Positions 3,850 to 31,019 of a DNA stretch of 31,019 nucleotides are shown piece by piece. The notes below the pieces were generated by a model, which had not been told where the DNA came from, made no database searches, and saw only the letters and a list, made by a program, of their open reading frames with translations. A program made the translations under genes and the position numbers. Origin of the DNA: Eledone cirrhosa (lineage: Eukaryota). The number at the start of each line of letters is the position of its first letter. The stretch's first letter is position 1. The stretch covers positions 1 through 31,019 of the forward strand of contig CAXHJY010001598.1 in the NCBI GenBank assembly GCA_964016885.1, given 5' to 3'.

Positions 3850-4394
3850 AATTTAGCTCTGGTACTTACATAGAGCACTCTTCACTCCTATGACTTTTTC
3901 AATTTTCAACGGAAACTTCAATACTTATATATATATATATATATATATTAATATATATATATATATATAAATATATATATATATATATATATATATATAT
4001 ATATACATAAATATATATATATGTCATATACATATACGTATGTATATATATGTATATATATGTATATATATGTATATATATGTATACATGCATGTATTAA
4101 TATATGTGTGTAAAGAAGAATGTCGTCACTGTTGGTATTATGTAATAGTTTTACAGTAGTATAGTTTTGGGTATTTAATTGTATCATATTTTGTGAACGA
4201 AGCAAATATGTTTGTTTTTCTTCCCTCTTGACGTGTCGCTGTTCCACATGATCATATTCAATACCGATGCCTCAGTGTCTTTGTATGAAAGTTTATTAGT
4301 TTCAGAGATTCTGTGTTATTGACTGAATGTTTCCGTTTTAAATCATATACAGACAATAAACTGAAGTGTTGAATTAGTATTGAGTGGGTTACAA

Positions 4395-4493
4395 CATAGA
4401 CCGCGGTTGTTCCAACGCTTCTCCGTCACCTTCCTCCGGGGCAATACCTTTCCCATCCTGTCCGCTGGAACCACGAAGGAGACTAATCATTAA
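4395..4493 (+). mobile_element. CRE-clade non-LTR retrotransposon 3' remnant
   Basis: Translates RLFQRFSVTFLRGNTFPILSAGT, matching the CRE C-terminal motif F(L)FQRLSVAVQRGNA.SIL. Confidence 0.7.
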
Positions 4494-4899
4494 GTTTCAT
4501 TTATGACGATGACATATCGAATAAATTTACTTCTATTTTATAATAAGGTAAAATACTGTTTTAAGATAGTGGACAGCTGCAATATTTTTTATGGCCAGTG
4601 ATTCAAAACTGTTTATTTCCAGGTGTTTATATTTATTTAAAAACCTTCCATCATAATTTTAAGTCCCTTTGTTAAGTTATACACCAAGTACCAACTTAAT
4701 GAGACAGATATATCTAAAGCTATCGGATCATACGAATTATTTAAAAAGATTATCAAATCATATTTCAATAAATCACAAAAAATAATTTCTGCCCCTCTTC
4801 CTCTCCTTCTTCTTCTCCTTCCTCTTCTTCTATTATAGTTAAGATTCTGGTGGTGAAAAATATCTTGAGTTGCATTTCCTGTGAAACGTGTAAACAGCA

Positions 4900-4952
4900 G
4901 CTTCTTTATTGCTGTTGTTCTTCTTTGCCCACTTTTTCCTGAGAGGGTCGTG
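4900..4952 (-). mobile_element. RTE 3' terminal fragment
   Basis: Reverse complement CACGACCCTCTCAGGAAAAAGTGGGCAAAGAAGAAC matches the ends at 355-390 and 6690-6735. Confidence 0.65.
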
Positions 4953-5189
4953 ATCCGGCTGATCAAACTGATCCGGCGAATTTCAGCTCCGAATAAATAA
5001 ATCAAGTAATCTCATATTTGGTGAGGTTATTACACTAGTTTGAAATAAAATAATACTGTATATTGCATATAGTGGAACAAAGGTAGAGATCCACATCCAT
5101 CTGGATGAAGAGAACGATCTATTGAATAGGATGTACTAATCCATTTGTAGTTCCTCTTATTAACAAATAGAACCTGATAGTAAAATAGA

Positions 5190-5280
5190 ATCCCAGCCAC
5201 ATTTGAATTCAGAAGGTGAAGAGATGCAACAAAACACTAGAAGGGTGTTTGGCCGACACTCTATTGATTCTGACATTCAC
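5190..5280 (-). mobile_element. Highly degenerate SINE family 1 head
   Basis: Reverse complement TGTCAGAATCAATAGAGTGTCGG...TTCTGAATTCAAAT resembles the A/B boxes of the other copies. Confidence 0.45.
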
Positions 5281-27489: not shown

Positions 27490-29508
27490 TTATAGCCCTA
27501 GTCTACCCCCCGGGTCATTATGGGGTTTGAGGGCGAGGTAAGTCCTACGCAATCTATGTTTACATGCAGTAACCAGTTCATCTTTCTTGTTTAGGAGTTG
27601 GTCCGTCGAAAACAGCATTTGTAAAGTTTCCTCCGAGCATAAATTGCACGGACGGCGTCCTCCCGTGTAAGAATTGGCTCTGGACAGTAATCTCCAAGTG
27701 AGATCATAGGTGATGTTGTTGTCCTTGAGGTCCCATATGTGGCCCGAAAGTGTAGTGGCGTGACGCCGGGCCGGGTTTCGGAAGGTATGTCTATGTTGGT
27801 ATAGCCGGGTCTTGAAGTCACATGCGGTAAGTCCTATATAGGCTTTGTTGGAGGTATCCGTCCTCACGTTGCACTGGTAGATCACATTACGGTCTCTGCA
27901 TCTATTGTCGAGTGGGCAAATAGATCTATCCGGGCAGTTACACCTCCTGGTCGGTTCTCCACTGCTATTTAGGTTATTTCTGCCATCGGGTTGAGTTTTT
28001 GTTGTTAGAGGAGACGATGTTTTGTGCGAAGTTTGGTGTAGTGCTGTAAGAGAGTTTGATGGTATTTTGTTAATTATGTTGTGGTAGCGGTGTTGTAATG
28101 GGAAGTGTTTTTCAATGAGCCTAAAGAATAGTTTCCCGATGGGAGTTGTCACATCTGCGTTGTGGGGAGGATTGAACCATGTTACATTGCGTGAGCGGCG
28201 GTGTCTCCTGCTGGTTCCGCTAATGGGAGCTGGACAGTAGGATATTTCCTCCCCGGAAACCACTCCGCTTGAGGGCCTGGTTGTAATAAGGCGCATGTTC
28301 ATCGAATATCCGCTCATTAGCTGACAAACGGGATATGCGGAGGGAGATGTTTTTGACCAGGTTGTTTGTGATGTTCCTAGGATGGTTTGATCGGTGGTGG
28401 ATGTAGTGTATATTATCATTAGGTTTCCTGTATGGGTAGTACAGGTCGTTTTCGAGGTCGAGGGTCACGTCCAGGAAGTTTACTCTGGTCAGGGACGTTT
28501 GTAGGGTTATTTTAAATCCCCAGTCGCGGAAGAATCTGATTAAATGTTTCCGGACCCGATCTGTACTACTGGGGTTGTACCCTTTAAGGGTAAGGAGCCC
28601 ATCATCACGGTACAATCCACCACCGAATGCAGGAAACATATCAGTGAGTTTGGCTATTAGGAATAATCCTATAAGATCTGTGACCTCCGCCGAATCCGTG
28701 GCGCCCATGCTGACGTCGAAGTGTGAGTCGGGAGCTCTTTTTATCCATTTAGAGTCGTCAAAGAGTAAGACTGTCTTCCTGGCGTGGAGGATGATTTTTC
28801 TTTCCTGGTCGGTGATGGGCACAAGTGTTTCGGCGAAGTCCAAGGCGGCAGTAAGTAGCGGTAAGGTGATTGAAGCATAGTAGCTCTCTATGTCGAACTG
28901 TATGAATTTAGTTTCTCGTTTATCCTCCATATTGCTGAACCAGGAGATTACTTCCTGGGTGTTGATCCATAGGCTAAGTCGGGTGTGTTGCTTGACTTTT
29001 GGTATCACGCGGTCTAGGATTTTTTTGCTGATTCTCCCTATGTCGGACTTCGTTGGGTTAATAAGCCTGATAGAGGGTTTACGGTCAAAATCGGATTTAT
29101 GGTCCTTCAGTGTGAAGTATGGTGTCCGTGGGTCTAGAGGTTCCGTGCGGTCGGCGACCCCGAGGCTGGAAGTGATTTGTTGTCCATCTCGATTTATGTC
29201 CTCGATGCAAGAGTGGTTGGCCTTTTTATAGGTGGAGTTTAGGCTGCTCCTGATCAGTGTGTGGTATCTGCCAGGGTTGACAAAGTATAGGTTCCCAGTT
29301 TAACCGAATGCACCATGATGTCATTTGTGTTATCATACTCTGTAAGGTTGCTACGGAGTTTTTGTAGGAATCGGTTGTGTCTGGGTTTAAATTTAATGTT
29401 CTTGACCAGTTGGAAGAGGTCATTCTCGAAGGGTGCGAGCAAGGGGTTCAGGGGCGGAGATTTGTAGGTAATAAATCCGAATCTCTCCTTGGTGCCGATT
29501 TTTGACAA
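27490..29508 (-). pseudogene. PLE polyprotein: reverse transcriptase plus GIY-YIG endonuclease, with several frameshifts (~29300, ~28255, ~28065-28010)
   Basis: Motifs KERFGF..PP...FENDL, TLKDHK, RLINPTKSDIG, FIQFDIESYYASI, FDVSMGATDSAEVTDLIG, LYRDDGL (28601-28612), NFLDVTLDL, SNHP, TWFNPP, CNC...CPLDNRC..NVIYQC...YIGLT...FKTRLYQH, CNLC.EE, LLNKKDELVTACKH. Confidence 0.93.
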
Positions 29509-29531
29509 TCACTTTGACCATATATGGAATT

Positions 29532-29625
29532 ACCCCTTGAGAAGATCGGCTATTTAAATACCAGGATAAATTTTCATTTAGTCCAGAATTAGCCGTCGAA
29601 ACGGCTTGAGCTCAGCTGTCGGGGT
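29532..29625 (+). ncRNA. Large type I hammerhead ribozyme, U3:A8 variant, antisense to the PLE ORF
   Basis: Stem I ACCCC/GGGGT, core TTGAGAA (29537-29543), stem II GA(T)CGGCTATTT/AATTAGCCGTC with ~31-nt loop, GAAA, stem III ACGGC(T)TGA-GC-TCAGCTGT, GUC site (C29620). Confidence 0.72.
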
Positions 29626-29640
29626 CTTACTGGTTCCTAT

Positions 29641-31019
29641 AATATATATATATATATATATATATATATATATATATATATATATATATATATATATATA
29701 TATATATATATAATATATATATATATATATATATATATATATATATATATATATAATATATATATATATATAATATATATATATATATATATATATATAT
29801 ATAATATATATATATATATAATATATATATATATATATATAATATATATATATATATATAATATATATATATATATATATAATATATATATATATATATA
29901 ATATATATATATATATATATAATATATATATATATATATATATAATATATATATATATATATATATATATAACGAAGGAAATGTGGTAAGGAACCAGGTG
30001 GACCATAACGCACCAAAGTACTCAATACTTGAGGTAGTAGAGTGGGTAATAGGAACCAGTAAGACCCCGACAGCTGAGCTCAAGCCGTTATTATATATTA
30101 TATATATATATAATATATATATATATATATATATATATATATATATATATATATATATATATATATATATATATATATATTATATATATATATATATATT
30201 ATATATATATATATTATATATATATATTATATATATATATTATATATATATATATATATATATTACATATTTATATATATATATATATTATATATATATA
30301 TATATATTATATATATATATATATATATATAATATATATATATATATATATATAATATATATATATATATATATAATATATATATATATATATAATATAT
30401 ATATATATAATATATATATATATATATAATATATATATATATATATAATATATATATATATATATATAATATATATATATATATATATATATAATATATA
30501 TATATATATATATATAATATATATAATATATATATATATATATATATATAATATATATATATATATATATAATATATATATATATATATATATATAATAT
30601 ATATATATATATATATATATAATATATATAATATATATATATATATATATATATAATATATATATATATATATATATATATATATATATATATAGATAAT
30701 ATATATATATATATATATATAATATATATATATATATATATAATATATATATTATATATATATATAATATATATATATATATATATATAATATATATATA
30801 TATATATATATATATATATATATATATATATATATATAATATATATATATATATATATATAATATATATATAATATATATATATATATATATATATAATA
30901 TATAATATATATATAATATATATATATATATATATATATAATATATATATATATATATATATAATATATATATATATATATATTATATATATATATAATA
31001 TATATATATAATATATATA
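29641..31019. repeat. (TA)n microsatellite with periodic TAA/TTA phase slips (interrupted at 29972-30089)
   Basis: Direct reading. Confidence 0.97.
29972..30089 (-). mobile_element. Truncated sense pseudo-LTR 3' end including the 77-nt tail
   Basis: 30049-30089 is the exact reverse complement of 29600-29640. 29972-30048 is homologous to 13973-14048. Confidence 0.85.

Follow-up and report, generated by a model that had tools for sequence, protein, structure and literature searches.

The window analysed here, the whole 31,019 nucleotides (nt) of contig CAXHJY010001598.1 of Eledone cirrhosa (GenBank assembly GCA_964016885.1), is eukaryotic DNA rich in microsatellites. It holds 3′ ends of Penelope-like elements (PLEs), judged as such by their hammerhead cores, their fold-back structure and one broken open reading frame (ORF) with reverse transcriptase (RT) and endonuclease (EN) domains. 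A hexamer, GAGYRC, recurs in these units close to their (TA)n junctions, and it belongs, as the 3′ arm, to a bulged stem-loop of Hydra-clade PLEs. This hairpin occurs twice between the hammerhead and the start codon where the pseudo-long terminal repeat (pLTR) continues into the ORF, and its two copies mark both ends of inserted elements, a geometry that is well supported by the sequences compared. The twin stem-loop appears to be real, deeply conserved and undescribed: no description of the motif was found in the literature searched (most subscription journals and the Repbase reports lay beyond reach) or in Rfam.

The hexamer stands at 3873(+), 11456(+), 12331(+), 14024(−), 23963(−), 24085(−) and 30023(−), its G lying respectively 53, 47, 52, 52, 47, 52 and 52 nt from the (TA)n run, and a GAATGC variant at 12604(−) lies 44 nt from its junction. 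All the positions given in a preliminary description of this DNA hold (its copy near 23960 is the one at 23963(−)), the hexamers lying 47–53 nt from their junctions in 7 of 55 non-repetitive junction flanks; one further flank has the hexamer at 97 nt. The seven flanks represent five families, two of them with two copies each (14.0/30.0 kb and 11.4/23.9 kb), and flanks from different families align at the motif only, which agrees with the early grouping of the 14.0- and 30.0-kb copies in one family and with its finding that the others share little. Counted across the window, GAGYRC is not over-represented (24 occurrences versus 23.7 expected by chance). The positional enrichment that had been proposed, run on the window flanks for the bare hexamer, was not above chance: with four duplicate flanks removed (51 left), any hexamer with two degenerate positions allowed and a 2-nt window, the top count was 4, at which GAGYRC stood level with two other motifs, and counts of at least 4 arose in 36 of 40 random shifts. 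Because the bare hexamer fails a test corrected for motif choice, the claim is not carried by the window alone.

Loci from outside the window supply the structure. We assembled 91 of them, 77 from metagenomes (from the best 80 of 475 matches) and 14 from genome bins, fetched with an alignment of the 23 of 78 homologues that have a complete C terminus; they form 62 families at 82% identity. After the hammerhead these loci read GCTC, a variable inner stem-loop, a 2-nt bulge, GAGC and ACT; in general terms, an RCTC/GAGY outer stem encloses a 2-nt bulge starting with U and a variable inner stem-loop, and is followed by RCT, unpaired after the stem in 72 of 73 hairpins. Hairpin 1 is present in 44 of the 49 outside families that have a hammerhead and at least 100 nt downstream, and of the remaining five, three carry hairpins at the 5′ junction within that contig, one has a copy damaged by one base, and one ends too early. 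It starts 47–66 nt from the hammerhead GAAAC; its GAGC lies 42–63 nt from the start of hairpin 2 (26 families), the stretch between the hairpins, which corresponds to the tail, measures 55–83 nt, and the 3′ arm of hairpin 2 precedes the ATG by 19–32 nt in 22 of 23 families.

Pairing was assessed by choosing the arms by sequence and then testing the interior, with halves swapped between hairpins in 2,000 control trials. When the bulge is set at 2 nt, Watson–Crick bases make up the first inner pair in 71 of 73 distinct hairpins (48 C-G, 22 T-A and 1 G-C), against a mean of 39.1 and a maximum of 51 among the controls. Bulge registers of 0, 1, 3 or 4 nt gave no pairing signal, and a first parse with a T·T mismatch and an AT bulge was dropped, pairing being found only in the 2-nt register. 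On a quick RT tree (43 rows, only fetched relatives, the window RT forming a long branch), the first inner pair switches between T-A and C-G at least six times, three of these forced by well-supported branches, and 13 of 28 families show a clean T-A/C-G swap between hairpins 1 and 2; relatedness does not fully explain the pattern. The outer stem is nearly invariant yet compensating, with GCAC/GTGC in two outside loci and ACTC/GAGT in three window families. In a model-fitted alignment of 95 distinct rows, which itself leans towards the model, 96.6% of cells pair, versus 82% when shuffled and 21–53% when slid. These comparisons give good support to a structured RNA motif whose compensatory changes exceed shuffled and slid controls. 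Inner positions that are not Watson–Crick comprise 7 G·U and 1 A·C on the sense strand, a modest sign that it is this strand that folds. Rfam covariance models run on nine hairpin-bearing loci gave two matches at an expect value (E) of up to 1, both outside the hairpins.

Two side observations concern these loci. A GAGTAG motif between the hammerhead and hairpin 1 is common to families L012, L014, L015, L018 and L020. Loci L078–L091 are bacterial genome bins that contain animal-type PLE DNA with (TA)n runs, and are likely host contamination.

We call an insertion end short where the copy stops before hairpin 1 and long where it stops before hairpin 2. On these terms the hairpins and related features of the window are as follows.

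3719–3925, unstranded: fold-back insertion running from a short end at 3719, 6 nt ahead of hairpin 1, to a long end at 3925, with its centre in a palindrome resembling hammerhead stem II
3856–3879, forward strand: canonical hairpin 1 (GCTC / GAGC-ACT, TA bulge), the sole strict-descriptor match and the best model match (E 7.5e-7)
11441–11462, forward strand: hairpin 1, ACTC/GAGT variant, found by the descriptor and by the model (E 0.02), with a type I hammerhead upstream (core 11375) and its long end at 11502
11603–11624, reverse strand: hairpin 1 (GCTC/GAGC, TC bulge, trailing ACT damaged), fifth model match (E 1.2)
12295–12337, forward strand: hairpin 1, ACTC/GAGT with a long inner stem, from the relaxed descriptor and a minimum free energy fold, not in full among the model matches, long end at 12382
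12598–12620, reverse strand: degenerate hairpin 1 (ACTC ... GAAT-GCT) that fails the descriptor, long end at 12561, partner short end at 12779, 7 nt before the hairpin
13196–13233, forward strand: degenerate hairpin seen by eye that retains its inner stem and TT bulge but not its outer arms, with a partner short end at 12808
13495–13523, reverse strand: degenerate hairpin 1 (GCTG ... GAGC-ATT) of the 13588 unit, seen by eye, no descriptor or model match
14018–14044, reverse strand: hairpin 1, ACTC/GAGT, found by the descriptor and by the model (E 0.0012), with a short end 5 nt before it at 14169 and its long end at 13973
23917–23992, reverse strand: minimal fold-back copy of the 11.4-kb family, long end at 23917, short end at 23992, hairpin 5′ arm cut by the inversion joint
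24057–24090, reverse strand: ambiguous, as GAGTAC at 24085 may form the 3′ arm or else the 5′ strand of an inner stem whose 3′ arm, at 24063, is damaged
30017–30043, reverse strand: hairpin 1, ACTC/GAGT, in the family to which the RT/EN ORF belongs, found by the descriptor and by the model (E 0.0007), long end at 29972, family short end at 30049

The model (R1) was built from 12 outside hairpins of equal length, because MAFFT misaligned those of variable length. Trained on outside loci, it places window hairpins (3846, 30053, 14054, 11431 and 11634) as the top five of its 13 window matches, whereas 12331, with its long interior, 12604 and 24085 escape it. At 24085 the hexamer does not match the hairpin descriptor and aligns with the 5′ arm region of 12331, so that it may instead form the 5′ strand of an inner stem. 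The fifth-ranked match falls in the 11676 unit, one of four units from which the motif had been said to be absent at its usual spacing. That statement stands for the 2860 unit, where no motif was seen, and for the 3594 unit, which stops ~50 nt past its hammerhead and so before the expected motif position; it does not stand for the 11676 unit, whose full GCTC/GAGC hairpin at 11603–11624 lies 68 nt from the TA run, and the 13588 unit has, by eye, a one-mismatch form 37 nt from its junction.

One window copy retains coding sequence, and its layout links hairpin and enzyme.

27490–29530, reverse strand: broken ORF of a Hydra-clade PLE, with RT at 28220–29299, a C-terminal GIY-YIG-type EN at 27535–27963, and CxCx5C, CxxC and CxH motifs
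29540–29641, forward strand: short copy in inverted orientation, its hammerhead degenerate, joined to the 5′-truncated ORF and ending 5 nt before its family's hairpin 1

The window ORF adjoins an inverted end of the 14.0/30.0-kb family, and this ties the motif to a Hydra RT. The preliminary idea of a conserved cis signal in unrelated pLTR families thus survives in its link to this RT clade and to the position of the 3′ end, the signal being a hairpin and not a hexamer. In the element as a whole (26441–29641) the EN is C-terminal to the RT, the CxCx5C linker reads CNCPDRSIC ahead of the EN core, CxxC is CNLC and CxH is CKH when aligned to P0018, and (TA)n adjoins both ends, as it does in reads of the family. 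The copy is truncated downstream of the position of the N-terminal RWK motif, and the ORF is frameshifted at the place where homologues have DKT. Its hammerhead stems can be read by eye at 29540–29630, with a mutated core that the pattern search missed; the same search found intact cores in other window units.

Insertion ends were mapped by comparing copies that stop with relatives that continue, using end positions from gapped BLAST. Of 29 mapped ends, 26 lie 0–6 nt before a hairpin 5′ arm (15/15 at hairpin 1 and 11/14 at hairpin 2), and two more rows, at 0 and 3 nt, were lost to the duplicate filter because their flanks are pure TA. TAT/ATA peaks 5–8 nt upstream of both hairpins, and the five window short ends lie 6, 5, 5, 7 and 7 nt before hairpin 1. 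Raw reads covering 29972–30092 (run X20) place (TA)n junctions at 29975/29982 (1251 and 1340 reads) and at 30049 (2977 reads), the latter 5 nt before the hairpin arm; the two main junctions of the ORF family are also found in three contig sets. None of 30 listed variants falls in 30017–30023, too few positions to weigh much. A fixed 51-nt ruler, as first suggested, had to be dropped: across 26 families the motif varies from 42 to 63 nt in its distance to the next hairpin, with ends 0–7 nt upstream of that uncopied hairpin, and the apparent ~51 nt mirrors this spacing.

Fold-back insertions combine the two kinds of end. All five window cases, and four of five resolved outside cases, join one short and one long end; in one other outside case no ends were assigned. 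Fold centres at 3783, 14111 and ~29570 lie in the loop of hammerhead stem II, that at 12703 lies just before the core, and that at 12998 is found 40 nt upstream. At these centres two like complementary DNAs (cDNAs) may be able to anneal through self-complementary stems. Separately, a 12-nt near-palindrome, CCTTAACTAAGG, occurs twice in each of two (TA)n runs (7860–7907 and 11772–11822), and these may be minimal fold-back insertions.

From this geometry we propose that each hairpin probably docks the element's RT on its RNA, setting one of two internal start sites and thereby creating the PLE tail. The hairpin beside an end is absent from the copy and must therefore be read on the template side. 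The ribonucleoprotein would nick (TA)n, and the target 3′ end would pair with UA just 5′ of a hairpin; copying would start a few bases 5′ of the hairpin and proceed away from it, for which reason the hairpin would be left out of the copy. A start at hairpin 2 would copy hairpin 1 and give a long end with a tail and GAGYRC ~50 nt in; a start at hairpin 1 would give a short end. A dimer seated on both hairpins would extend both sides of the target break, yielding fold-backs with one short and one long end. We advance more tentatively, and with rather less than even confidence, a general form of this scheme, in which a dimeric RT related to telomerase, guided by a hairpin pair 3′ of its starts, would prime both ends of a double-strand break from one RNA; such a design would yield the tail, the fold-backs and the need for tandem copies, and the hairpin could be a portable internal-start signal.

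The closest experimental parallel is PAc (Poseidon of Anolis; Frangieh et al. 2024, PMC11167929), for which the available text reports that two internal RT start sites delimit the tail, that RNA lying 3′ of these sites is required, that both strands are cleaved and extended, and that a dimer is predicted, all of which fits our proposal. PAc differs in belonging to another clade and in starting inside the ORF, and that text names no conserved or duplicated structure for it; a binding motif is hypothesised within the first 172 nt of the ORF.

The same end geometry would be expected if the hairpins acted in DNA, with cDNA begun further downstream and the GIY-YIG EN recognising a single-stranded or extruded stem-loop, cutting the adjacent TA and trimming the ends before or during integration. 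The TAT/ATA peak beside each hairpin suits an AT-preferring nuclease, Craig et al. credit the tail to EN-mediated resolution (PMC8557442), and PMC11167929 reports that tail DNA was required for recognition by the D. virilis EN. Yet we regard DNA cutting as unlikely, given that the PAc tail ends are reported there to coincide with RT starts measured in vitro (PMC11167929). The excess of G·U over A·C on the sense strand (7 to 1) also makes first-strand cDNA the poorer folding strand. The hairpins could instead be RNA processing signals, a host nuclease cutting the tandem transcript 5′ of each stem, in a manner analogous to RNase P-like cutting, to leave two 3′ ends for end-primed target-primed reverse transcription. 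Ends at or just before the stem base (0–6 nt) and the conserved RCT that follows the stem (72/73) would suit this, but the stem has only 4 base pairs and a bulge, without tRNA-like arms, the window ends leave 5–7 nt uncopied, non-TA bases included, and PAc is described as requiring no 3′ processing (PMC11167929); processing therefore seems to us improbable.

Still less credible is the notion that the repeats function in the 5′ untranslated region (UTR) as promoter or translation elements, a TATA-like site with a downstream motif, near which ends fall only through TA microhomology with (TA)n targets. Both hairpin copies do lie in the 5′ UTR, TA-rich sites precede both, and the 3′ arm of hairpin 2 keeps its 19–32 nt from the ATG in 22/23 families; covarying inner stems, however, require a single strand, and ends cluster within 6 nt although AT-rich regions offer other TA sites. 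An additional role of the hairpin in translation may exist. A chance match, or copies of a single family, would accord with the failure of the bare hexamer in the corrected window test; to this we give almost no credence, since the motif is recovered by 62 outside families, by covariation and by a model trained outside the window, and the swapped-half controls, that model and the mapped end positions refute it. The early concern that the units might be diverged copies of one family is likewise answered by the five window families and the 62 outside ones.

Several observations weigh against docking at twin hairpins. Three outlying ends fall 24, 24 and 27 nt off (two of them from a cross-family reference), two further copies from an earlier mapping pass stop inside the hammerhead, and gapped BLAST ends can overshoot into TA, exact-match anchoring giving distances of up to 11–20 nt for some diverged copies. 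One outside inverted pair (L083) is short plus short. Taken singly, the hairpins show no unusual stability (z −0.2 to −2.3 in single-sequence folding), many second hairpins have one inner pair only, and the outside loci are an uneven sample, drawn from the top 80 among 475 matches to a single query. For the organism of the window, the loose ends listed from reads do not include hairpin 2, and the window itself has ends only. In PMC8557442, as far as its File S7 was available, two published consensi end just 31–32 nt past the hairpin, and neither Hydra-1_Obim nor Hydra-1_Amil has a hairpin by eye, of which the former counts here. PAc, in the part of the report available, used the same start site on both strands in vitro (PMC11167929); as it shows no start-site difference between strands, PAc does not support the step that assigns one hairpin to each end.

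Short structured RNAs that recruit an element's own RT are familiar from the 3′ stem-loops of stringent long and short interspersed elements (LINEs and SINEs) and from the R2 3′ UTR; those structures lie upstream of the start and are copied, whereas the twin hairpins lie downstream, uncopied and paired. In hepadnavirus epsilon and in the template-flanking elements of telomerase, a bulged stem-loop or flanking structure positions the RT internally. Priming here would be by target DNA, and the likeness is one of analogy, with no relation of sequence claimed. Within PLEs, the Hydra clade as described in the available text of Craig et al. (PMC8557442) shares with our elements a C-terminal EN with CxCx5C, CxxC and CxH, (TA)n targets, a hammerhead and fold-backs with a one-ended tail, and the tail and fold-back pattern was already described there for PLEs. 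The tail is 55–83 nt here versus 30–40 nt given for PLEs in general (PMC8557442), and no conserved RNA motif beyond the hammerhead is described in that text. The hairpin is nonetheless visible, unannotated, in the available File S7 of the same paper: the published consensus Hydra-1_Ajap has both hairpins and starts 2 nt before hairpin 1, Hydra-2_Amil and Hydra-2_Ajap have hairpin 1, and Hydra-1_Crog has variant forms (all by eye). An exact text search with four 9-mers, in which line breaks can hide matches, gave 7 matches in the files seen, 4 in 6 Hydra consensi and 3 internal in the far larger Naiad/Chlamys files; within that search the motif did not turn up at Naiad/Chlamys ends.

How PLEs choose their template, and why they carry a one-ended tail, are open questions, and the sole in vitro study only bracketed the binding site. 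The hairpins offer a defined structure of 20–40 nt in two copies, with natural compensatory variants and exact predicted starts, which makes the question testable by a few point mutations. If our proposal is right, it would explain the long-puzzling PLE tail, and a lone copy would be dead, because hairpin 2 is never copied and would be regained only in tandem. Telomerase RT has the PLE RTs as its sister group (PMC8557442), so that the proposal, if true, would bear on internal-template positioning by that sister group. The hairpins also serve as a marker for annotating Hydra ends.

Named homologues of the window RT include octopod and sea-slug proteins. A protein search with the EN alone gave no match, viral contigs contained no relative, and an Rfam scan of the window had no hammerhead among the matches listed (150 of 275). 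A further piece of coding sequence is of the same type.

7925–8330, forward strand: second Hydra-type EN fragment, CxxC kept

This fragment, a 2.4-kb microsatellite stretch and the 11.4-kb hammerhead and hairpin end share one orientation across 7925–11502(+), and may belong to a single element. The 3′ UTRs of three PLE units, at 2560–2610, 11300–11340 and 26441–26490(−), have in common a C-rich tract that closes with CTCCTAC and is followed by a TA site; the tract sits upstream of the hammerhead where a hammerhead follows. A non-LTR retrotransposon with RT and RNase H domains in two frames occupies 16980–19511(+), its tail running to 19913 with a (CAA)-rich array at the end. An AT-rich block between TA runs at 24264–25944 has inverted 29-nt tandem units (24306–24363 and 25370–25427) and contains a tRNA match at 25578–25650(−); it may be a DNA transposon with a tRNA-derived piece inside. 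A short interspersed repeat, which we take to be a SINE, has copies at 1050–1280, 5848–6029, 11882–12070 and 20581–20762.

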